The translations under genes and the position numbers were made by a program. Shown here piece by piece: positions 3,849 to 58,887 of a DNA stretch of 64,000 nucleotides. The notes under the pieces were generated by a model. It was not told the DNA's origin, did not search any database, and was given only the letters and a program-made list of their open reading frames with translations. Position 1 is the stretch's first letter. Each line of letters opens with the position of its first letter. The DNA is from Thermoplasmata archaeon (lineage in GTDB: Archaea; Thermoplasmatota; E2; DHVEG-1), in NCBI GenBank assembly GCA_020054495.1, contig JAHWGK010000002.1, forward strand, positions 16,418 to 80,417, written 5' to 3'.

Positions 3849-4499
3849 TTATGTAATTAGTCGATCAAGGGCCTTATATCCTCTAATGACATCTTTTTCA
3901 TCAACAATAAAAGTGATTTCGAAATCAATTGAAATAACTTCAATGATGTTGATGTTCTCCCAGGCAAAATTTCGAATAATTTGAAATAATACTCCTGGAA
4001 TATTAACTAATTTTTTACCAATGCTAAAAGATAAGGATACAAGGTTATCTTCTATGCTAAATATTCTTTCGTTTTGTAAAAAATTACATATTTTGTCTTT
4101 ATAACGTTCATTAGTAATAATATTAACCGAGTTTCTCCCATAGATTATGTGAAGAATATCCCCTTTTTCAAATTTGATGACGTCATATATTCGTTTTAGT
4201 TTATCAAACAAACCTGGAGTCTTTTGAACATTAATGTCAATAACATTTGTTTTTACGTTTACCTCTGAAGAACCAGCATCAAACTTAATTTCTTTAAATT
4301 TAACAATCATTTTTTCGGCATATCTTCGAATTGCTGCTACAATTGCATAATGCGCAACTTCCTTTCTTAATTCTTCTTCAATCTCTGATTTAAGTTGTTT
4401 TGCTACAGAACCATATGAAGCGATTCCTTTTCCTATTGCCTCTTGCAGATATATATTCTCGTCAACAAGTTTATTGACAACATGGGCTATTGTAACCAT
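3849..4499 (-). CDS. ACT-domain-containing regulatory protein (paralog of 15991..16641)
   Basis: 216 aa. C-terminal half resembles ACT/aspartokinase regulatory domains (GVLFQIIRNFAWENINIIEVIS...RGYKAL). About 35-40% identical to the 15991..16641 product. Confidence 0.45.
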   Translation of the reverse strand: MVTIAHVVNKLVDENIYLQEAIGKGIASYGSVAKQLKSEIEEELRKEVAHYAIVAAIRRYAEKMIVKFKEIKFDAGSSEVNVKTNVIDINVQKTPGLFDKLKRIYDVIKFEKGDILHIIYGRNSVNIITNERYKDKICNFLQNERIFSIEDNLVSLSFSIGKKLVNIPGVLFQIIRNFAWENINIIEVISIDFEITFIVDEKDVIRGYKALDRLIT

Positions 4500-47810: not shown

Positions 47811-49460
47811 ATGCCTCAAGATATTTATGATAAAATCATGATGCTTGCAAAAAGAAGAGGTTTCATCTATCCCTCCTTTGAAATCTATGGCGGTGTTGCT
47901 GGTTTTTATGATTACGGCCCACTAGGATCTCAACTTAAACTGAATATCGAAAACCTTTGGCGTAAATTCTACCTGCTTAAAGACAACTGTATCGAAATTA
48001 TTACTCCAACTATAACATTACATGAAGTTTTGAAAGCTTCTGGGCATGTTGACGAGTTTACTGATTTTACTGTGGATTGTAAAAAATGTAAACAATCCTA
48101 TAAAGTTGAGGATGTTATAGATGATGATATCGGTATTGAAGCGGCGTTAAAGGAAAATAAAGTGAAATGCCCGAATTGTGGTACTAATCTAAAAGATGCT
48201 TATCCTGTTAATCTTATGTTTTCCACTAAAATTGGAATCGGAAGTGCCAGGGATGCTTTTCTTAGACCCGAGACCGCTCAGGGTATATTTACGGATTTTC
48301 ATCTTCTTTATAGATATGCCCGCGAGAAGTTACCCTTTGGAGTTGTACAGATTGGTGAAGGATATAGAAACGAGGTATCACCTCGCCAAGGTATCATTAG
48401 ACTCAGAGAATTTTCAATGGCCGAAGCAGAGATCTTTTTTGATCCGAAAGATAAAACACATCCTAATTTTGGAAGCATTAAGAATAAAGAACTATATCTT
48501 TTTGATAATGAAAAAGAAATTAAACTTTCAATTGAAAAAGCTGTCAAAACCAAGGTGATTAACAACCAGGCACTTGCATATTATATGTATCTCACACAGG
48601 ATTTTCTAATGACTGCAGGAATTGATCCTAAAAAATTTAGATTTAGGAAACATGCACCAGATGAACTAGCTCATTATGCCACAGAGTGCTGGGATGCAGA
48701 AATATTCAGTGAGAGATTTGGCTGGATAGAATGTGTTGGTATCGCAGATAGATCTGCATATGATTTACGTTCACATATCGATTCATCAGGAACAGATATG
48801 TATGCTTTAAGGAAATATGATAACCCAAAGACTGTTGAAGTAAAAAAGATCGTTCCAAATATGGGCAAATTAGGGCCACTTTTTAAAGGAGAAGTTGGAA
48901 TGATCAAAACATTACTTGAAAACATGGAAGTAAAAGATACAAAAAAGATTTCTGTTAACCTTGATGGTAAGACTATAAAGATACCTAATGAGTGCTATAA
49001 AATAACAGAAACTAAAGAAAAGGTAGCTGGTGAGAAGTTTGTACCTCATGTAATCGAACCATCTTATGGAATTGACAGAATTTTGTATTGTTTAATTGAG
49101 CATAACTATCATGAAGGTAAGAAAAAAGAAGAAGAATATAGAATGCTCAAATTTAATCCAATAATTGCTCCAATAAAAATTGGGGTTCTTCCGCTTATTA
49201 GTGACGAAAGACTTATTAAAATCGCAAATGAAATTGATAGAAATCTTAGAGATGCTGGTATAACAACATATTATGATGAAAGTGGGTCAATAGGTCGACG
49301 TTATGCCAGAATGGATGAAGTAGGAACGCCGTTTTGTATTACAATTGATCATGATACATTAAAGAATAATACTGTGACTATTAGGAATCGTGATACTACA
49401 AAGCAGATTAGAATAAAAATAGATGAAATTACGAGTTATCTAGCATCTAAAGTAAATTAG
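47811..49460 (+). CDS. glyS: glycine--tRNA ligase, archaeal/eukaryotic alpha2 type
   Basis: 549 aa. N-terminal MLAKRRGFIYPSFEIYGGVAGFYDYGPLG. Class II motifs. Internal zinc-finger insertion CKKC...CPNCG. Confidence 0.9.
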   Translation: MPQDIYDKIMMLAKRRGFIYPSFEIYGGVAGFYDYGPLGSQLKLNIENLWRKFYLLKDNCIEIITPTITLHEVLKASGHVDEFTDFTVDCKKCKQSYKVEDVIDDDIGIEAALKENKVKCPNCGTNLKDAYPVNLMFSTKIGIGSARDAFLRPETAQGIFTDFHLLYRYAREKLPFGVVQIGEGYRNEVSPRQGIIRLREFSMAEAEIFFDPKDKTHPNFGSIKNKELYLFDNEKEIKLSIEKAVKTKVINNQALAYYMYLTQDFLMTAGIDPKKFRFRKHAPDELAHYATECWDAEIFSERFGWIECVGIADRSAYDLRSHIDSSGTDMYALRKYDNPKTVEVKKIVPNMGKLGPLFKGEVGMIKTLLENMEVKDTKKISVNLDGKTIKIPNECYKITETKEKVAGEKFVPHVIEPSYGIDRILYCLIEHNYHEGKKKEEEYRMLKFNPIIAPIKIGVLPLISDERLIKIANEIDRNLRDAGITTYYDESGSIGRRYARMDEVGTPFCITIDHDTLKNNTVTIRNRDTTKQIRIKIDEITSYLASKVN

Positions 49461-49469
49461 AATTGCCTA

Positions 49470-49582
49470 AAATCTGCTATCCCAATCGATGCAGAGCATC
49501 GGGGCATTACGCAGATTTTCGAGACGGCAATTCTTCGTTGATAGATTCTCAGTCATCATCGGAGCAGAGCTCCGGGGTATTA
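49470..49582. other. structured RNA-like element: 9-bp outer stem enclosing a hairpin, plus a second covarying hairpin
   Basis: AAAATCTGC(49470-78)/GCAGATTTT(49511-19) flank CGATGC-AGA-GCATCG. The second copy CGGAGC-AGA-GCTCCG at 49556-70 has compensatory changes. Each is followed by GGGGYATTA. Locally GC-rich. Confidence 0.3.
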
Positions 49583-49589
49583 AACCCAT

Positions 49590-50822
49590 TTAGGAATAAA
49601 ATAACAATCTTTCCAGCAATGGAAATCTTTCAAGCAACGGGAAACGCTCTAACAACCCTGATAAAAGATTGTGGGTAACAATTTTATTTCTAGGCATATT
49701 CACCTCGAGTGTCCCCCATTCGCTTTCATTACCATATCGATCTGTAGCTTTAGCTCTAATTATATAATTACCCTCTTCATCCCAACTATGATCAAGAATT
49801 ATTTCCTCACCAGACTCATAGGGACCTACAACTACTTCTCCAGTGTCATCACTCCAGTTAATGCAGTAGTATAAAATATCAAAATCAGGATCTGCCGCAA
49901 CAAATGTATATGAATACACTTCTCCTGCAGTGCCATCTGTTTCACCAGTAATCGTTGGTTTGTCTGGTGCTCTATTTGGAACTGTTGGATACCCTGCTGC
50001 ATCCCAACCAGTAATTCCACCTGGCATGTTATAAATCGTTCCATTAAACTCATTATCAATAAGGATATTAGTTGCAATAATACTTCGAGCCCCTGAATGA
50101 CAGGTAAGAATAATTTCCATACCTTCATATAATTCTAAAAATTCTTGTAATTTAATCTCATCTTGCAGATCATTAAGGCAATGGTGTTTTGGATTTTCTG
50201 GAGAAGGTGTGTCAATATGCCAATCAATCCACTCTCCATCAGTTCTTACATCAATCGGAATTTGAATACCATTAGCAGTATCAGTTAAAAGATCCCATGC
50301 TTCTTCAACTGTAATGTTTGTATGACCGCCACTCATAGTAGGAAGCCCTGCATCTACCCAGGCAGACATTCCACCTAGCATGTTATAAATCGTTCCATTA
50401 AACTCATTATCAATAAGGATATTAGTTGCAATAAAACTTCGACCCCCTAAACCACAATAAAGAACAATTTCCATACCATCGTATAATGTCATAAATTGTT
50501 GTAACATGGTTTTATTCTGCAACAAGTTAAGACAAAAATGCCGTGGATTCTCTGGAATTGGAGTGTCTATACGAACAACAGCCCATTCTTGATTTGTTCT
50601 AACATCAATAGGAATTTGAATACCGTTACCAGTGTCAGATAATAGATCCCGTGCCTCTTCAACTGTTAAATTGGTATAATCATCATTTAATTTCTCAAAT
50701 AATAAATCACATTCTGATTTATATTGAACGTTTGTTGCGTTTACAGCCGATCCAAATATTAGCCCAAGCATTAAAACTGTAATATTTAGAACCAAGCATT
50801 TTTTTATAATATTTTTTTTCAT
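49590..50822 (-). CDS. secreted tandem-rhodanese sulfurtransferase-like protein with C-terminal beta-sandwich and LLERFP x3 tail
   Basis: 410 aa. Signal peptide. Two rhodanese domains with active-site Cys loops (YCGLGGRS, TCHSGARS). PKD/Ig-like region. Terminal LLERFPLLERFPLLERLL. Confidence 0.7.
   Translation of the reverse strand: MKKNIIKKCLVLNITVLMLGLIFGSAVNATNVQYKSECDLLFEKLNDDYTNLTVEEARDLLSDTGNGIQIPIDVRTNQEWAVVRIDTPIPENPRHFCLNLLQNKTMLQQFMTLYDGMEIVLYCGLGGRSFIATNILIDNEFNGTIYNMLGGMSAWVDAGLPTMSGGHTNITVEEAWDLLTDTANGIQIPIDVRTDGEWIDWHIDTPSPENPKHHCLNDLQDEIKLQEFLELYEGMEIILTCHSGARSIIATNILIDNEFNGTIYNMPGGITGWDAAGYPTVPNRAPDKPTITGETDGTAGEVYSYTFVAADPDFDILYYCINWSDDTGEVVVGPYESGEEIILDHSWDEEGNYIIRAKATDRYGNESEWGTLEVNMPRNKIVTHNLLSGLLERFPLLERFPLLERLLFYS
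50015..50484. repeat. intragenic tandem duplication (period 354 nt) within the rhodanese gene
   Basis: About 110-nt blocks at 50015-50125 and 50369-50479. A 60-nt core (gcatgttataaatcgttccattaaactcattatcaataaggatattagttgcaataa) is 100% identical. Confidence 0.7.
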
Positions 50823-51104
50823 GTTATTACCTCCCCATATTTCTATTAACCTATTTTTTTTAATTTTTACTTACCACGTGGTAAATATATTAATATTATA
50901 ATCCTATATAAATTTTTCCTACTAATAATATTCAATTTTTTAAGCCAAAAGCATCAAATTTTTCCTTAGAAAAAACTGATTTAGTTATTTAATATGATTT
51001 CTCTTTTTCAGATACATATTTAGATATTTACTCGCTCCTAATACAATTGACAATTATTAAATATAGATATATATTCCATATTATTCGTTAATGGTTACTT
51101 GTGA

Positions 51105-51437
51105 TTGAATATGAAAACACCGTGTGAGATAATTGTGTGGAATATTGTACCTGTAATCAAGAAGGAAATAGCAAAGAGTTTAATTAACGAATTTAGATTT
51201 AATCAAAAGATAACGGCAGAAAAATTAGGTACTACTGAAGCAGCAGTTTCTAGATATATATCTGGAAAAAGAGGTGCATTGGAGATTACTGATAAGGATA
51301 TTTTGAATGAAATTAGTAAATCTGCTAGAAGAATAGCTAATAAAAATAGTTCTGTTTTAATAATGGAAATCTGTAGAATTTGTCGACTTTTCAGGAGTAA
51401 AGAAATTATTGATGGAATTGATTATGAATGTGATTAA
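51105..51437 (+). CDS. HTH transcriptional regulator with C-terminal CxxC zinc ribbon (paralog of 26379..26714)
   Basis: 110 aa. GTTEAAVSRYISGKRG HTH. CRICRLF...C. Same architecture as 26379..26714. Confidence 0.5.
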   Translation: MNMKTPCEIIVWNIVPVIKKEIAKSLINEFRFNQKITAEKLGTTEAAVSRYISGKRGALEITDKDILNEISKSARRIANKNSSVLIMEICRICRLFRSKEIIDGIDYECD

Positions 51438-51599
51438 AATAAAACTTATTTAACCCAAGTTAAACTTGGTATTTGCCCAATTTACTTATACCTATTTCAT
51501 CCCCCCCAACTTTCTTAGATCATTGTGGACGCCTACGTATGTTTTGTTAATACATATACCGATATCATCCCAACAATGAAAGCAATTGTCTACAAGAGG

Positions 51600-51794
51600 C
51601 TAATTTATTTTATGAATAGTTACTGTTCCATCGTTTAGAACAATCCATCGCAACTTATCACCATTTTCTAAATCTAAAATTTCAACAACCTCAGAAGGCA
51701 CTGTTATCCTTCTTCTTGAGCCACGAATTGTAATTGCTGCCTCCTTAATACATCTAACATCATCCAGTTCAATCTTTATGAAAGCCACCAACAA
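51600..51794 (-). CDS. AbrB/SpoVT-type swapped-hairpin DNA-binding protein
   Basis: 64 aa. RITVPSEVVEILDLENGDKL. Last gene of the pst operon direction. Confidence 0.55.
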   Translation of the reverse strand: MLVAFIKIELDDVRCIKEAAITIRGSRRRITVPSEVVEILDLENGDKLRWIVLNDGTVTIHKIN

Positions 51795-51953
51795 AGAAAG
51801 GGAAATCGATTACAAATATTTTGTTATTTCTACAATACAGTTTGGTAATTAATCAGTAATGAATTGTAAACTCAACTATACGGCATGCTGATTAGATAGT
51901 AAACAGTCAGTTATCACCATCAACTGTAATAAAATTTGAACAAATCGGGCTTT

Positions 51954-52727
51954 TTAACTTATGTCTCCATCAATATACGCTTTTGTTTTAGGATCTTTAG
52001 GATTGTTAAAAACCTCGTCTGCTGGTCCTTGTTCAACAACCTTGCCAAAGTATAGGAAAACCACATGATCGGCAAGTCTTTTCGCTTGACGTAGTGTATG
52101 CGTCACGAGTACCACAGTATACTCCTTTTTTAATTTTAAGAGAAGTTTTTCAATCTGCTGCGCAGCAATCGGATCTAGGGCAGACGTTGGTTCATCACAT
52201 AATACTACTTCTGGTTCTACCGCTATAGCCCTTGCCAAACACAGACGTTGTTGTTGCCCTACTGAAAGTCGTGATGCAGGATCATGAAGTCTATCCTTTA
52301 CTTCATTCCATAGGCCTGCTTCTTGTAAGTAATGTTTAACGGCACTATCTAACTCCTTTGCATTTTTCTTACCATGAATTCTCAATCCATATGCAACGTT
52401 ATTATAAATTGACATTGGCAAAGGATATGGTTTTTGTGAAAGTAATCCCATTTTTTTTCTCATATCTGGAACATCTACCCTAGAATCAAAAATATTTTCA
52501 CCATCAACAAGTATTTCCCCTGAAGTTTTGATGTTATCCCTTAGATCTAGCAACCTATTAAACGATTTTAACAAGGTTGTCTTCCCACAGCCAGAGGGAC
52601 CAATAATAGCAGTAAGTTGTTTTGTTGGGATTTCTATATTAACATTTTTTAGAACATAATTATTATCATAGTATACATTAAGGTTTTTGGTTTCTATATG
52701 TATATGTATATCTGATTTTTTAATCAT
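51954..52727 (-). CDS. pstB: phosphate ABC transporter ATP-binding protein
   Basis: 257 aa. Walker A GPSGCGKTT, signature LSVGQQQRL, Walker B VLCDEPTSALD. Confidence 0.9.
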   Translation of the reverse strand: MIKKSDIHIHIETKNLNVYYDNNYVLKNVNIEIPTKQLTAIIGPSGCGKTTLLKSFNRLLDLRDNIKTSGEILVDGENIFDSRVDVPDMRKKMGLLSQKPYPLPMSIYNNVAYGLRIHGKKNAKELDSAVKHYLQEAGLWNEVKDRLHDPASRLSVGQQQRLCLARAIAVEPEVVLCDEPTSALDPIAAQQIEKLLLKLKKEYTVVLVTHTLRQAKRLADHVVFLYFGKVVEQGPADEVFNNPKDPKTKAYIDGDIS

Positions 52728-52740
52728 AGTTAATCCTCTT

Positions 52741-53598
52741 TTATCTTATTACAAATTTTGTATATCTTTTTGACAATGCCCTAGATACTATACTAATTGA
52801 AAGAACAATTACCACCAGTATAAACGCTGCAGCATACGCCCTCTGTCGAACCAATGGATAAGGTGAAGCATATAGATGATAAATCATCGTAGGGAGAGCA
52901 GCCGTTGAATCAAAAAGCGATCCAGGAATACGATCTGAAAAACCAGCGGTGAACAAAATAGAGGCAGCATCACCAATTCCTCTACCAAGCCCCAAGAGAA
53001 CTCCAGCAATAATTCCTGGGAGTGCCTGTCTCCGTACAACCTTCACTGCGGTCTCAAATTTCGTTGATCCCAACGAATATGCCCCTTCTTTAAGCTCAAT
53101 AGAGACCATCTTAATTGATTCATCCATATATCTTGTAATTATAGGGATTTCAAGTAAGGTTAATGCTATAATTCCAGCAAGCAATGATGTTCCAATTCCT
53201 ATAAATACCATAATCATGAGACAAAAAATCCCATATACTATTGATGGTATGCCCCATAGGATATCAAGAGACAATCGAATAAATGCAGATATCCTAGGAT
53301 GAGTAAATTCTCTTTGGAGATATAATGCAATTCCTAACCCTATTAAACACGCTAGAGCCGTAGCAGGCAACGCAAGAAACAAAGAGCCAAGTATAGCATT
53401 TAATATTCCACCACCCCGTCCTAAATAATATCCTCCACCTGATGTCTGAGTAAACATTTCTATAGTAAGTGACGAGCCGCCGTTAAAAACGACCAGTCCA
53501 ATAATGATTACCAAGCTACCCATTACTATAAAAACAGAGGCGAGCATAAGTATTTTAAAAATCTTTTCCTCAAGAATACGTCTATTCAATAACTCCAC
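52741..53598 (-). CDS. pstA: phosphate ABC transporter permease PstA
   Basis: 285 aa polytopic. Overlaps pstC by 13 nt. Confidence 0.85.
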   Translation of the reverse strand: MELLNRRILEEKIFKILMLASVFIVMGSLVIIIGLVVFNGGSSLTIEMFTQTSGGGYYLGRGGGILNAILGSLFLALPATALACLIGLGIALYLQREFTHPRISAFIRLSLDILWGIPSIVYGIFCLMIMVFIGIGTSLLAGIIALTLLEIPIITRYMDESIKMVSIELKEGAYSLGSTKFETAVKVVRRQALPGIIAGVLLGLGRGIGDAASILFTAGFSDRIPGSLFDSTAALPTMIYHLYASPYPLVRQRAYAAAFILVVIVLSISIVSRALSKRYTKFVIR

Positions 53599-54479
53599 CT
53601 CCTCTTAGCTCTTCTAAGAACAACTACTGCTAAGACATTAAACAACAATACTACGACAAACAGAATCAATGCTACCAACATAAGCGCCGACTCATAAAGA
53701 GGCACTGACATCATTTCACCATATGCAGAGGCTATCAATGAAGCTAGTGTCTGCCCAGGATGCAACAAAGAAGAGGGTATCCTAGGAATTCCGCCAACCA
53801 CCATGTTCACAGCTATTGTCTCACCAAAAGCCCTCCCAAAACCAAGCAATACTGCAGAAATAATACTAGGTGCAGAAGCGCGAAAGATAACTTTTTTTAC
53901 AGTTTCCCATTTCGTCGCTCCTACAGACAACGATGCCTCCTTCAGCTCAATAGGTATAGCACTAAATGATTCTACACACAATGAGATAATTATAGGAAAA
54001 ACCATTATCGCCAAGGTTACAGATGCTGTAAGTATACACAGACCCGTACTTTCTATACCAAACCATGGTGCTATCACGTCCTTGACCAGTGGCACCAGAA
54101 AAAGAAATGCGCACAACCCGTAGACAACAGAAGGAACACCGGCAAGTACATCAAGAAAAGGTCTGATCACCCGCCTAATTTTTCCAGGGGCATACTCAGC
54201 AATATAAACTGCACTGAGCAAAGAAATTGGTATCGCAATAATGAGGGAAATCCCAGTTACTAATATGGTTCCAATAATGATTGGATAAAGACCAAACTCA
54301 CCCTTTTCAGGATTCCATAATGAAGAAAATAATAATTCGGCGATAGACTGAGTTTCCAAAATGAATATAGACTTATACAATAGAATTAAGAATATCGCGA
54401 AAAATAAAAGAGAAGCAAATATCGTAACCGTAAACATCAGTTTTGTGCCAATGAAATCACGCAACTTTCTCTTATTCAT
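53586..54479 (-). CDS. pstC: phosphate ABC transporter permease PstC
   Basis: 297 aa polytopic, same fold pattern as PstA. Confidence 0.85.
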   Translation of the reverse strand: MNKRKLRDFIGTKLMFTVTIFASLLFFAIFLILLYKSIFILETQSIAELLFSSLWNPEKGEFGLYPIIIGTILVTGISLIIAIPISLLSAVYIAEYAPGKIRRVIRPFLDVLAGVPSVVYGLCAFLFLVPLVKDVIAPWFGIESTGLCILTASVTLAIMVFPIIISLCVESFSAIPIELKEASLSVGATKWETVKKVIFRASAPSIISAVLLGFGRAFGETIAVNMVVGGIPRIPSSLLHPGQTLASLIASAYGEMMSVPLYESALMLVALILFVVVLLFNVLAVVVLRRAKRRWSY

Positions 54480-54530
54480 GATGAATTCTTTTCCCTCAAA
54501 TATTGGAATATAAGGATAACCGGAATTTTC

Positions 54531-55554
54531 CTAGGTAGTCTCTGGTCTTTCTCCTTGTTCTAGATACTCCATCTGTTCACCAATCATATCTTCGGATAAC
54601 TGGATATAACCATTATCAGGGACATATTGCTGCCCATCTGTTAAAATCCAGTAAACAAACTCCTTTGCCACCCCGGTGAAGCTGTTTTTTGTCACTAAAT
54701 GTAGAGCTCTTGCTGGTGGAGATGGATATACATTACTAGCTATTGCATTCACAATATTGGTTCTGTTATCATAAAAATTCTCGTTCTCATCTAGTATACC
54801 ATTCTCATCCAAATCTATAGGAACAGGCTTTATCCCATTAAATGGTTTTTTTGTCTCTGGATCATATACAAAGTTAATGTTATTATACCCTATGCCACGT
54901 TTATCTCCTTGTACGGTTGCAGCAAGATTCGGATCTCCATTTATAGCTGAATCCGCTGCATTTGTCAGATCATCTTGTGTATACTCTCCAAGGTATTTTG
55001 CCCATGTTTTAGCAGCACCACATGCATCAGATCGAGTATATACCCTAATTTTATCTGTCACAGCAGGATTATCAACTAGTTCTCCCCATGTTTTGATGTT
55101 TCGTGTAATGAATATGTCTACAAACTGCTGTTTTGTAATACCTCTTGTAAGGATGGTATTAGCTACAGGATTATCTGTATTAATCGTTGCAAGCACAGCG
55201 TCTTTTGCAACAGAAACCCAAAATATTCCCTGATCTATTTCCGACTGATATATGTCTCTTGAGACCATGCCTATATCCACAATTCCCTGGATAGCATCTG
55301 ACATCCCCTTGCCGGCACCACCGGCAGATACATCAATTTTAACCTCTGGATGAATTTTTCCATATTCCTCAGTCCATATACCCATCATTGGATAAAGGGC
55401 AAACGCACCTGATACTTTTATTGTGTTTTTCTGTTCGCCTATGCAGCCACATGTGCTAACAACTCCGAGCATAACAATGATTAGAACCGCGCCTATTTTC
55501 ATTATTTCATTCCGTGTTTGCTTCTCTTTTGTATATTTCTTCATTTCAATCATA
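54531..55554 (-). CDS. pstS: phosphate-binding protein PstS (lipoprotein-like)
   Basis: Start moved to MIEMKKY (GGAGG 7 nt upstream). Signal/TM plus Cys lipobox-like STCGC. PBP domain (SAGGAGKGMSDA). Confidence 0.8.
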
Positions 55555-55835
55555 TAAAAACCTCCTTCTGTTCCATATTTATTCCCGAAATACTCGCTAG
55601 GAATAATGCAAATCGTGTTGAACAAGACATTGTCATAAGACATTATTATGTAATAACCCATATTTAAAACTATTGGTAATTTTCATATATCAAACCAAAT
55701 TAATCCAAGTTTAATGGTTTTAATCCAATTTATCCAGGTTCTGTTGGAATGACAGGTTGGAAAAATCTGCTAAGTATGATTTATAATGAATTGCTATATT
55801 CCATCGATTTTTATGACTCTCTTCATCTTGTGGAA

Positions 55836-56597
55836 CTAGGAGCATTGTTTACATAGTGTTTTAAATTTACACCAATCACACAACCTTGAAGGATTTGCAG
55901 GGAACTTTTCAGCGTTCTCGATAACATCTATTAATTCAATAGTGTCCTGTTTTAATTCTTCAAGCCCATCATCTGTTCTAGTGGCATCAATCTCCTTGTT
56001 GAATTTTAGGAAATGTCAAATCAAACGAACATCTTTGATATCTGGATATCTCTGTTTTATGCCAATTGAATAGAGTGCCAACTGTCTATCATTTTCAATA
56101 GTTTCTAAAGAAGGCAACCGTGAGCATGTCTTATAATCGTGTATCTCATAACAACCATCCTCTATCTCTGTAAGTCTATCAATATAACCACATAGTTTGT
56201 ACTCACCAGATTCATCTAGATTTATGAGAATACGTTCTTCAAGCGCAATAGTTCTTCCCTGATCAAATGGTTTATACATTTTGTAGTAGTTAGTGATACA
56301 TCTTTCAGCTATCAACAGATAGTCTTTAGGACGATATTTCTCCTTTACAATCACAATCAAGTCATTCCAGTTTTTAGTCCATCGAATATGTAAAAAAACA
56401 AGCAAATCTTCCAAAGTATTTTCTTTTTGATATTGAATATCACGATATAATTTTTTCAAGGTTTCATGGACTCTTTTACCAAGAAATAGTTCAATGCTTT
56501 CTCTTGTTTCTGTTTTTACCTTGTCAGTATATTGGAGTTTATATTTTTGTGGACATTGTTCATAGCAGCTTAAACGGGAATGAGAACAAATTGTCAT
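55836..56597 (-). pseudogene. Cas4/RecB-like PD-(D/E)XK nuclease interrupted by in-frame TGA (56016-56018)
   Basis: The 193-aa ORF carries N-terminal Cys (YEQCPQKY), catalytic D...EIHDYKT and QLALY. The same frame after the TGA encodes 59 aa ending with the Fe-S motif CDWCKFKTLC. Confidence 0.55.
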
Positions 56598-56770
56598 AAA
56601 ATATCACATCTTGCGACTGCAAAATTATTTTTGAAAACGTTCTTCAGCAACTCAATAAATGTAAGTTGCTTTAGTTCAGAAAAAGAAAGAAAAAAGGGTT
56701 TAAATTGCGGTTTAATAACCACCTTAAGAATAAAAAAAAAGAATGGTTTAACCTGATACTTTTTATGATA

Positions 56771-57472
56771 TTATTCAGTAATTTCAAATGTATAATGCTC
56801 TGTTTCGAGTGTGCCTAGCCAGATTTTAGGGAATTCTGAAGTTAGTGAAGGGATTGGTAGAAATGATTTATATGCTGCGTAAATTCCATAAGCTCCAGGA
56901 ATGAAGTCGTAAGGTACGGGTACTTGAGAAGAAACATCTGTTGCAGAGTTTAGAATACCAAATAATCCACATTTTATATCTATTTCAATTGAGCTAGAAT
57001 CTTCTGGATATAATGTCAATAATTGCACATTATTAGGATCAACTGGGCCTATGAATTGAATTTCAAATCCATCTGGTGTACGAATGAAGAAATCAATAGT
57101 CCCAACTTTAAAATTCATTTCACTAACATAAATGATTTCATAATCAATATTAGTCAAAGTTGCTCGTACGAAAATTGGCTCCTCTAGCTTATATTCTTCT
57201 TTGCCGGAGATATCAAACAATAATTTGGGAGGTGCTGTGTCAGAATCTGGTTTTGGTGGTTCTACAGATTGAAAATTATCAAAGAATTTAGCTAAAATTG
57301 GGAATGTATTACAGATTTTACTAATAAAATCAAAAATCTTACTTTGAAATACAGTTTTTATTCCAATCACTTTCGTTTCATCAACTGAATTTTGAGCCAT
57401 AGCAACTGTAGAAATTGAGGCGCAAAAAAGTAAAGTTACTAGCATAATTGTTACAAATTTTTTATATTTCAT
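56771..57472 (-). CDS. secreted hypothetical protein
   Basis: 233 aa with N-terminal signal peptide (LVTLLFCASISTVAMA). No recognisable domain. Confidence 0.45.
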   Translation of the reverse strand: MKYKKFVTIMLVTLLFCASISTVAMAQNSVDETKVIGIKTVFQSKIFDFISKICNTFPILAKFFDNFQSVEPPKPDSDTAPPKLLFDISGKEEYKLEEPIFVRATLTNIDYEIIYVSEMNFKVGTIDFFIRTPDGFEIQFIGPVDPNNVQLLTLYPEDSSSIEIDIKCGLFGILNSATDVSSQVPVPYDFIPGAYGIYAAYKSFLPIPSLTSEFPKIWLGTLETEHYTFEITE

Positions 57473-57567
57473 ATTTTTACCTCTGTCTTTATTTATATTT
57501 TTATTTTAACATTTATATATATTTATGATTATTTATAAAACTTTCGTTTATTAATAGACAAAAAAAT

Positions 57568-58887
57568 TTAGTAAAAAACAAGCGTATCATCAATGATTTC
57601 AAGTGCTTTATCAATTTCCTCAGAAGAAATAATCAATGGTGGACGGAATCTAATTGTATTTGCTCCACATCCAATAACGATTAAACCATTTGCATATAAT
57701 TTGTCTTTCAGCTCATTCCTCTTTTTGGCGTTTGGTAGATCAAACGCACACATAAGACCTAGTCCTCGAACATTAGATATTTTATCTTGATGCTTTTGAG
57801 CAAGTTTTTCAAGACCTTCTAAAAGACGTTTTCCCTGCAATTCTGCATTTTTTATTAGATTCTCTTCTTTTATCACTTCAAGATATTTTTGGCAGCGAAC
57901 CATATCAACAAGATTTCCACCCCAGGTAGAGTTGAGTCTACTTGAAATATTAAAAACATTTTCTTTGATTTCATCTACCCGATTACTAACCATAATCCCG
58001 CATACTTGTGTTTTTTTTCCAAAGGCAAGTATATCAGGCGTAAAACCAAAATGTTCGTGAGCCCACATCTTACCAGTCAGTCCAACACCAGTTTGTATTT
58101 CATCTAATATGAACATCATTTCATGTTTGTCACAAAGTCTTCTCAGCTCTAAGAAAAATTCTTTTCTAAAATGATTATCTCCACCCTCACCCTGAATAGG
58201 TTCAATAATAAGAGCGGCAATATCATTTGGATTTTCTGAAATAGCGGTTTCTATTTCAGATACTGCCTGTTTTTCAAGTTCTTTTACTTTTTCTAGGTTT
58301 TCTTTGTTTAAAGGATATGTAATCTTTGGATTTATGATACGTGGCCAATTAAATTTTGTAAAATATTTAGTCTTATCAGTATTAAACGTATTTGTCATTG
58401 AAAGTGTATAACCTGTTCTACCATGGAATGCTTCGTTAAAATGTATGACTTTTGTGCCAAGTTTTTCACTGTCTTCTTTTTCAATGTTTTTTCTCACCTT
58501 CCAGTCAAATGCAGTTTTCAATCCGTTCTCAACTGCTAGTGCACCACCACTGATAAAAAAAAGATGTTTGAAATAATTTGGCACTGCATGTTTTGCAAAA
58601 CTATTAACAAATTCTGACATTTCTGTAGTATATATATCAGAGTTGGTTGGCTTGTTTACTGCAACTTCTCCAATTTTTTTTATAAACTCTGGAGTGGTAA
58701 GTTTAGGATGATTACAACCTAGGGGGGCTGAAGCAAAAAAGGAGAAACAATCAATCATATATCTCCCAGTTCTTGAATCATAGATTTGGCATCCCTTGCT
58801 TTTTTTTAAATCTAAAACAAGGTCAAAACCATCTGCAAGTATATATTTGGCGAGTGTTTTATGTACATTTGTTGGCTCAATTGTCAT
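57568..58887 (-). CDS. lat: L-lysine epsilon-aminotransferase (class III PLP aminotransferase)
   Basis: 439 aa. Close block-by-block match to characterised LAT (DLVLDL, FFISGGALAVENGLKTAFDWK, EPIQGEGGD, PDILAFGKKTQVCG, NSTWGGNL, GLMCAF, IRFRPPL). Confidence 0.85.
   Translation of the reverse strand: MTIEPTNVHKTLAKYILADGFDLVLDLKKSKGCQIYDSRTGRYMIDCFSFFASAPLGCNHPKLTTPEFIKKIGEVAVNKPTNSDIYTTEMSEFVNSFAKHAVPNYFKHLFFISGGALAVENGLKTAFDWKVRKNIEKEDSEKLGTKVIHFNEAFHGRTGYTLSMTNTFNTDKTKYFTKFNWPRIINPKITYPLNKENLEKVKELEKQAVSEIETAISENPNDIAALIIEPIQGEGGDNHFRKEFFLELRRLCDKHEMMFILDEIQTGVGLTGKMWAHEHFGFTPDILAFGKKTQVCGIMVSNRVDEIKENVFNISSRLNSTWGGNLVDMVRCQKYLEVIKEENLIKNAELQGKRLLEGLEKLAQKHQDKISNVRGLGLMCAFDLPNAKKRNELKDKLYANGLIVIGCGANTIRFRPPLIISSEEIDKALEIIDDTLVFY

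Follow-up and report, generated by a model that had tools for sequence, protein, structure and literature searches.

Palindrome-associated transposable elements (PATEs) are too short to encode a transposase, lack terminal inverted repeats, and have near each end a palindrome of a kind related to that of IS605-type elements (PMC3119063). Some of them arise through deletion of the core (PMC3119063), and PATE-like elements are also known in Geobacillus stearothermophilus (PMC10055086). For IS608, the subterminal hairpins of the top strand are bound by the transposase TnpA (PMC3201880). The left cleavage site of IS608, which is also the target site, is situated outside the IS, 19 nt away on the 5' side of the hairpin of the left end (LE); the right one is situated inside the IS, 10 nt away on the 3' side of the hairpin of the right end (RE). 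Both sites are recognized through pairing with a 4-nt guide located 5' of the hairpin foot (PMC3201880).

The window analyzed here, that is, the whole stretch of 64,000 nt, contains an element of about 144 nt (49452–49595, minus strand). This non-autonomous element very probably derives from an IS200-type insertion sequence (IS200/IS605 family) as a miniature form that lacks the transposase, similar to PATEs. Like the PATEs of Haloquadratum walsbyi and G. stearothermophilus, it is short and has similar palindromes on the same strand, IS200/IS605-like ends, and a short conserved terminal or target oligonucleotide (PMC3119063, PMC10055086). Also as in PATEs, the left border is farther from the palindrome than the right border in the complete copies (see Metagenomic relatives and the linked transposase). 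The haloarchaeal PATEs are mostly tied to IS1341/TnpB-carrying elements and those of G. stearothermophilus often encode omega-RNAs, whereas the relatives found in this study have tnpA only. Specific to the subfamily described here, as compared with PATEs, are the AGA loop, the GGGGYAT motif, and the pentamers TTTAT and TTTAC, with one copy known in the 64-kb window.

With IS608 (Helicobacter pylori) and ISDra2, the element shares the LE and RE subterminal imperfect palindromes on one strand, a right site on the 3' side of the RE hairpin, guides of 4 nt that are located 5' of the hairpin feet and match the respective cleavage motif position by position and, in the complete relatives, a Y1 HUH transposase of ~140 aa. 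The distance from the left site to the LE hairpin is about 21 nt, as compared with the 19 nt of IS608. Unlike IS608 and ISDra2, the element in the window has neither tnpA nor tnpB, and its RE carries extra nested stems. The motifs also differ: the pentamers have the form TTxAy, as opposed to TTAC and TCAA, and four C residues separate the guide from the 6-bp stem.

Genomic location of the element

The window was placed in uncultured Thermoplasmatota by the GlyRS homologs, with up to 80% amino-acid identity. The element is located between two convergent genes and fills all 129 nt of the space between them. The first of these genes, glyS (47811–49460, plus strand), encodes a protein of 549 aa, which was judged to be an archaeal-type glycyl-tRNA synthetase (GlyRS) by its Pfam domains (tRNA-synt_2b and HGTP_anticodon) and its 80% identical homologs in Thermoplasmatota MAGs. 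The second, herein referred to as the rhodanese ORF (49590–50822, minus strand), encodes a protein with two Pfam Rhodanese domains and no exact match on record. The first-pass annotation had located a pair of hairpins just after the glyS stop; this is so, and the element additionally reaches the stop of the convergent rhodanese ORF. The last codon and TAG stop of glyS (AAT TAG, 49455–49460) are inside the element, as are the last codon TCC and the TAA stop of the rhodanese ORF (49590–49595). Both convergent genes now take their last codon and stop codon from the element, which would be a consequence of the insertion. The C-terminus of the rhodanese protein is ...LLERLLFYS-stop in the window versus ...LLERLLSFLF-stop in its 82% identical homolog P0001.

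Two tandem repeats were found in the rhodanese ORF. An 18-nt repeat (49606–49641), located just outside the element, corresponds to a duplicated LLERFP at the C-terminus of the protein; P0001 has one LLERFP unit fewer. A 354-nt repeat (50014–50666; 1.8 copies, 79% matches) is probably the counterpart of the two Pfam rhodanese domains.

The gene order amidohydrolase, CBS, glyS, and convergent class-III aminotransferase was found in about 30 related genomes. In the window, glyS is parted from the class-III aminotransferase gene (57568–58887) by an 8.1-kb block (49461–57567). Besides the element and the rhodanese ORF, this block contains a pst-like ABC transporter operon, an ORF of 110 aa that is unannotated, an ORF for a PD-(D/E)XK nuclease, and an unknown ORF of 233 aa. 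The nuclease ORF (56016–56597; PF12705, 193 aa) is solitary inside the variable block, with no cas genes nearby. An intergenic AT-rich tandem repeat with a period of 30 (57461–57536) is located at the far edge of the block, before the aminotransferase stop. Other, shorter insertions were found at the glyS/aminotransferase junction in several relatives. This junction is thus a variable spot in this lineage of Thermoplasmatota, and the element marks it as one.

The element was not found downstream of glyS in about 40 relatives. The conservation in related genomes that the first-pass annotation had proposed as a check for the structure is thus not seen at the syntenic site. The element is also absent after the stop codons of P0001 and P0002, the closest homologs of the rhodanese protein (82 and 74% identity, respectively), and no copies were found by the covariance-model search of the relatives' loci. 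Because of this absence after the glyS and rhodanese homologs of relatives, the element is not a conserved appendage of either gene. The relatives without the element have another gene, that for the aminotransferase, beside glyS, and no empty site was found among them. Before the insertion, the plus-strand junction might have read ...CTAGCATCTAAA joined to ATAAAATAACAATC..., with one TTTAT/ATAAA kept afterwards. With such a junction, GlyRS would have ended in ...LASKIK-stop (still 549 aa) and the rhodanese protein in ...LLFYFRC-stop.

In the 64-kb window, no further copies of the module were found by a search with the covariance model R1, and a tblastn search for tnpA with three TnpA sequences gave nothing below E = 0.4. 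The full-length relative of this single copy, L148, is located at an unrelated locus of another organism. Only one public contig, L089, encodes an identical GlyRS. This contig stops inside hairpin 1 (its positions 2366–2399 equal 49461–49494 of the window), which fits a break of the assembly at an element that is repeated or palindromic, or else a difference between strains at this point.

Hairpins, borders, and guides

Two hairpins were found in the element, both on the same strand and both with a loop of 3 nt that reads AGA on the plus and TCT on the minus strand. Hairpin 1 (CGATGC-AGA-GCATCG, 49487–49501, minus strand; 40.0 bits with the covariance model R1) corresponds to the subterminal palindrome of the RE (IPR), and its stem is extended by CCC (49481–83) and GGG (49502–04) across an AAT bulge. 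Hairpin 2 (CGGAGC-AGA-GCTCCG, 49560–49574, minus strand; 46.7 bits) corresponds to the subterminal palindrome of the LE (IPL); its stem has 6 bp, and its counterparts in an alignment are the LE hairpins of L210 and L152, two copies that carry tnpA. The loop and four of the six stem pairs are identical in the two hairpins, the remaining two adjacent pairs differ by compensatory changes, and the two copies are 74% identical. Each hairpin is followed by GGGCATTA or GGGTATTA, i.e., GGG(C/T)ATTA. The 19-nt pattern common to both hairpins occurs twice in the window versus 0.07 occurrences expected.

The first-pass annotation, made from the letters of the window, had described most of this anatomy. 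The two AGA-loop hairpins, their compensatory differences, and the shared GGGGYATTA are all present; in GGGG(C/T)ATTA, however, the fourth G is the last base of the stem. The second hairpin, reported about 65 nt downstream, begins 73 nt after the start of the first one, with 58 nt in between. The 9-bp inverted repeat described around hairpin 1, AAAATCTGC/GCAGATTTT, was found at 49469–77 and 49511–19. It is not the only one, since an outermost 9-bp inverted repeat, AGAATTGCC/GGCAATTCT (49459–67 and 49526–34), had been missed. Together, these two stems wrap hairpin 1 into a 76-nt extended palindrome (49459–49534), of which the outermost repeat was seen in the window only. The GC enrichment reported for a genome of about 30% GC is real, with 44% GC in the element; the window itself has 34%. 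The 71-aa ORF overlapping the hairpins had been called implausible, and no Pfam match was found for it.

The element folds strongly on both strands. The z-scores relative to shuffled sequences were -4.6 and -4.8 for folding as RNA and -6.4 and -5.5 for folding as DNA.

The extent of the element was taken from an end-to-end alignment with L148 and from the LE and RE of L210 and L152. The borders were drawn at the positions where the similarity between the window and L148 stops and at the conserved pentamers. Which of the two pentamers would belong to the element was inferred from the topology of IS608. The minus strand of the window corresponds to the sense strand of tnpA in the complete relatives, and on this strand the order is LE, short core, and RE. 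The target or left cleavage motif TTTAT (TAM or CL; 49596–49600, minus strand; ATAAA on the plus strand) flanks the LE and, by analogy with IS608, would lie outside the element. At this border, (G)AATAAA is kept in 25 distinct LE-type copies. Directly 5' of the foot of hairpin 2 is GGGTATTAAACCC (49575–49587, minus strand), which includes the putative left guide (minus strand, AATA; plus strand, TATT, 49578–49581) and in which GGG and CCC are able to pair as a small stem; GGGGTATTA(A/G)ACCC is kept in the LE-type copies. On the sense strand of tnpA, the layout of the LE is TTTAT followed, across the border, by TCC-N5-GGGTTTAATA-CCCC-hairpin.

The putative right guide (CATT on the plus strand, AATG on the minus strand; 49505–49508, minus strand) is the position-by-position complement of TTAC in TTTAC, the terminal pentamer of the RE. 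This right cleavage motif (TEM or CR; 49452–49456, minus strand; GTAAA on the plus strand) forms the last bases of the RE and is located within the last codons of glyS. L148 has the same motif at the same distance from hairpin 1, and the similarity stops there; GTAAA was also found at the borders of families A and B. On the sense strand of tnpA, the layout of the RE is AATG (window) or GATA (L210 and L152), followed by -CCCC-hairpin-ATTGGG-...-TTxAy, with the border after the pentamer. In both the window and L148, the RE is atypical, with ~30 nt and extra stems before TTTAC versus ~9 nt in the complete copies.

By inspection, no terminal inverted repeats were found: the ends of the minus strand, TCCTAAATGG... 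and ...TTCTAATTTAC, are not reverse complements of each other. The inverted repeats that are present are internal, nested around hairpin 1. The two border pentamers (TTTAT and TTTAC) are unlike each other, which argues against a simple target-site duplication.

The relation between the guides and the pentamers was tested with 191 distinct modules, taken from the loci L090–L209 and the window, and with swapped controls. The guide TATT was accompanied by ATAAA in 49 of 69 copies (1 of 69 in the swapped control), and CATT was accompanied by GTAAA in 57 of 67 copies (control, 9 of 67). The rarer guides TATC and TATG were accompanied by ATGAA in 5 of 7 copies and by ATCAA in 4 of 6 copies, respectively, as compared with none in the corresponding controls (0 of 7 and 0 of 6). 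Many of the copies are related, so these counts are higher than the number of events that were truly independent; agreement was seen nonetheless for four different guide/pentamer combinations. The window fits the rule at both ends: CATT (49505–08) occurs with GTAAA (49452–56), and TATT (49578–81) occurs with ATAAA (49596–600). This pairing of tetranucleotides with pentamers looks like a readable guide/cleavage-site code of an IS200 subfamily. Since the pentamer at the border can be predicted from the tetranucleotide next to the hairpin, the C/T difference in the GGGG(C/T)ATTA motif of the first-pass annotation is the difference between the right guide and the left guide.

Metagenomic relatives and the linked transposase

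A metagenome scan with the pattern CGNNGCAGAGCNNCGGGGYATTA matched at least 120 loci, which bears out the recurrence of the motif elsewhere that the first-pass annotation had proposed to look for. This pattern was derived from the window, and thus only the unconstrained positions and the flanks of the matches carry independent information. The matches listed belong to contigs with 29–57% GC, unrelated gene contexts, and unrelated organisms. Among the 120 matches listed, 102 show Watson-Crick pairing at every free stem position, with at least 11 pair combinations. Pairing is kept in 98% of the stem cells of 33 distinct copies, and the observed covariation was attained in none of 500 shuffles and in no slid register. 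By these values, the structure is real and under selection, and the earlier proposal that it is non-coding is upheld.

Clustering of the ORFs around the 120 matches listed revealed no one protein family linked to most of them. It exposed a small group of proteins of ~140–160 aa, which are assigned by homology to the IS200-type Y1 transposases (TnpA). These proteins match the Pfam family PF01797 (Y1_Tnp) with E-values of 1e-32 to 1e-43, and their best matches among solved structures are the IS200-type TnpA chains 2f4f, 2ec2, 2xm3, and 2a6m. Their relatives are recorded as 'IS200/IS605 family transposase' and come for the most part from DPANN archaea, Woesearchaeota among them. A Y1_Tnp gene is located at most 50 nt from the module in 12 of the 120 matches listed, always in the same relative orientation. 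Six complete copies (L152, L170, L184, L110, L094, and L104) have the order hairpin-tnpA-hairpin, with both hairpins on one strand and 490–575 nt apart. A reverse test was carried out with contigs picked solely because they encode P0166 (NCBI: IS200/IS605 family transposase, Candidatus Woesearchaeota); on these contigs, covariance-model matches were found on both sides of the gene. The tnpA gene was found on many small contigs, as is the case for multi-copy IS elements. Additionally, there are many loci with two modules 44–170 nt apart and no gene in between.

The relative most similar to the element of the window is L148, which resembles it over the whole length and is likewise located between convergent genes, unrelated to those of the window. 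This element (4190–4340 of its contig) is flanked by a HIT-family gene and an unannotated 137-aa ORF, and it also supplies the stop codon of the downstream gene. The contig encodes a TyrRS-like protein that we take to be of bacterial type. The hairpin CGATGCAGAGCATCG is identical in the window, in L148, and in L170, where it is found beside a tnpA remnant. The inner enclosing stem of L148, GCATCGCC/GGCGATGC, differs wholly from that of the window in its letters, with complementarity kept. The similarity of the two elements ends with GTAAA at one border and with (G)AATAAA at the opposite one.

A further group, 'family A', consists of a MITE of ~100 nt found in 36 contigs (L090, L093, L096, L097, and 32 more), largely from freshwater-sediment metagenomes. 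It has the same AGA hairpin, its termini pair in inverted orientation over 13 nt (CCCCGTTAGAAAT/ATTTCTAACGGGG), GTAAA is present at each border, and some of its copies carry nested insertions. Family A, which may move either like a PATE or like a classical MITE, also resembles the latter, which was counted against the PATE interpretation.

Two other searches gave no signal. A partner scan for 'hairpin + GGG' produced noise, with 19 same-strand versus 17 opposite-strand loci, and the covariance model was used instead. A scan of viral contigs gave five matches, all in one unrelated high-GC phage family, and a viral link of the module was rejected as chance on account of this confinement.

Taken as a possible PATE, the element of the window has similar near-terminal hairpins on the same strand that score 40–47 bits with R1, a length of about 144 nt that includes no transposase ORF, homology of its two ends to the LE and RE of Y1 TnpA elements, and border pentamers that pair with the guides (TTTAT with AATA, TTTAC with AATG). 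On the minus strand, the parts would be the LE (hairpin 2 after the guide AATA-CCCC), a core of ~58 nt, and the RE (hairpin 1 after AATG-CCCC) with its terminal TTTAC; the target motif TTTAT would adjoin the left end. If the element behaves like IS608, both hairpins would be bound, during a single-stranded phase of this strand, by a dimer of TnpA from another locus, and each cleavage pentamer would be brought into place by pairing with the guide on the 5' side of its hairpin. The enzyme would next cut the strand out as a circle and insert it anew on the 3' side of a different TTTAT. That the minus strand is the active one is suggested by the position of the guides and the topology of IS608. 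The cleavage points given above are predicted positions, and this copy may be mobile at present.

Alternative explanations and biological meaning

Several other types of features were searched for in the window. The first-pass annotation had proposed an Rfam scan; with Rfam 15 at the gathering threshold, no family matched the element, anything else in the window, or the module in 20 related loci. With E-values up to 10, the best hits for the element had E-values of 1.1 to 8.7, far under the gathering scores. These included the archaeal C/D sRNAs sR14 and sR1, which were judged to be noise, with the C-box-like GATGATGA on the minus strand. A C box-like sequence followed by a D box-like one is present in CCGATGATGACTGAG (49546–49563, minus strand), with sR14/sR1 at E-values of 4–9 and 9–10 bits versus gathering scores of 38–45; this likeness is judged to be due to chance, because no second box pair is in register. 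By eye, H/ACA and C/D sRNAs and a K-turn were rejected as well, as there is no ACA box, no in-register D box, and no G-A pairs after a 3-nt bulge. No tRNA or split tRNA was found in the window by ARAGORN. Among the 26 neighboring ORFs scanned (roughly 36.7–64 kb), housekeeping genes were found, with no cas and no orc1/cdc6 genes, and origin-recognition boxes were rejected on the latter ground. A scan of 49200–49900 for sites resembling intrinsic terminators gave one hairpin with a T-run (49706–49722), which is outside the element, and none at the hairpins.

A structured RNA, i.e., an sRNA gene or a 3'-UTR element of glyS or the rhodanese gene that acts on stability, protein binding, or regulation at the RNA level, would agree with the strong folding of both strands as RNA, with the covarying stems, and with the high GC content in a window of 34% GC. 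The location of the element in the 3' region of two genes also makes its transcription within their mRNAs probable. Nevertheless, such an RNA is very unlikely here. It has no family in Rfam, even at the most permissive E-values, and the syntenic site of relatives lacks it. The same module lies beside Y1 transposase genes, on both sides, and recurs in unrelated gene settings of organisms with widely differing GC content. Moreover, the guide-to-pentamer rule has no RNA rationale, and the stem pairs are nearly all Watson-Crick, so that no strand is marked by G-U pairs. For these reasons the sRNA, 3'-UTR element, or terminator suggested by the first-pass annotation was given up. Its broader proposal of a functional RNA or a protein-binding site came near the mark with protein binding, while the evidence points to single-stranded DNA hairpins for an IS200/IS605 TnpA. 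A REP/REPIN-type element moved by a domesticated RAYT (TnpA-REP) would share with the element the short GC-rich extragenic palindromes, the non-autonomous nature, and the need for a Y1 HUH enzyme. RAYTs also match the Pfam family Y1_Tnp, and REPs are short GC-rich extragenic palindromes in pairs (PMC3337134, PMC8266576). REPINs are inverted doublets, however, with single-copy RAYT genes between inverted REPs, whereas all informative pairs found in this study are direct and on the same strand. The transposase genes here lie between direct-orientation hairpins, inside an IS with a distinct LE and RE and with conserved border pentamers. No RAYT chain is among the best solved-structure matches, and the distribution of tnpA over many small contigs is that of a multi-copy IS. 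The REP/REPIN explanation is thus extremely unlikely.

The two hairpins, an ATTAAAC-like handle, and the 73-nt period could also recall a degenerate mini-CRISPR array or a CreA-like repeat pair, as a 73-nt period with a hairpin followed by ~8 nt resembles some CRISPR repeats. This explanation is effectively refuted: the window has no array, the 26 neighboring ORFs scanned include no cas genes, the identity of the two copies is just 74%, tnpA is what the module is linked to, and among the metagenome matches listed the module occurs once or twice per contig and not in arrays. A transposon remnant could, finally, have been co-opted so that its hairpins now serve as a two-way transcription stop or as an mRNA 3'-end stabilizer between the convergent genes. 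Both the element of the window and L148 are located exactly between convergent genes, each giving a stop codon, and the stable hairpins face both directions of transcription. The left-end hairpin of IS200 of Salmonella blocks incoming transcription; archaeal termination, on the other hand, rests mainly on T-tracts, and no hairpin with a T-run is present at the element. An intergenic position is to be expected in any case, since insertions are tolerated there and the AT-rich TTTAT/ATAAA overlaps stop codons. Such co-option is accordingly considered quite unlikely.

A derivative of an IS200-type insertion sequence remains the explanation preferred here. An extended form of it, rather unlikely as a whole, would combine exaptation of the hairpins, which would set the 3' ends of both convergent mRNAs, with an IS200 subfamily common to DPANN, Thermoplasmatota, and bacteria, in which a guide x'ATy' would pair with TTxAy. 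If true, the target code would explain both the landing of such elements on stop-codon-rich gene ends and the rewriting of C-termini.

For annotation, the element demonstrates that a GC-rich, covarying, and well-folding intergenic sequence of an AT-rich archaeon can mimic a new sRNA and yet, very probably, be a transposon end. Covariation by itself cannot tell RNA hairpins from those of single-stranded DNA. A small insertion can swap the last codons and the stop codons of two genes. The covariation of guides and pentamers across metagenomes is natural evidence for an IS608-type recognition code in an unstudied IS200 subfamily, and this code could aid the re-targeting of such transposases.
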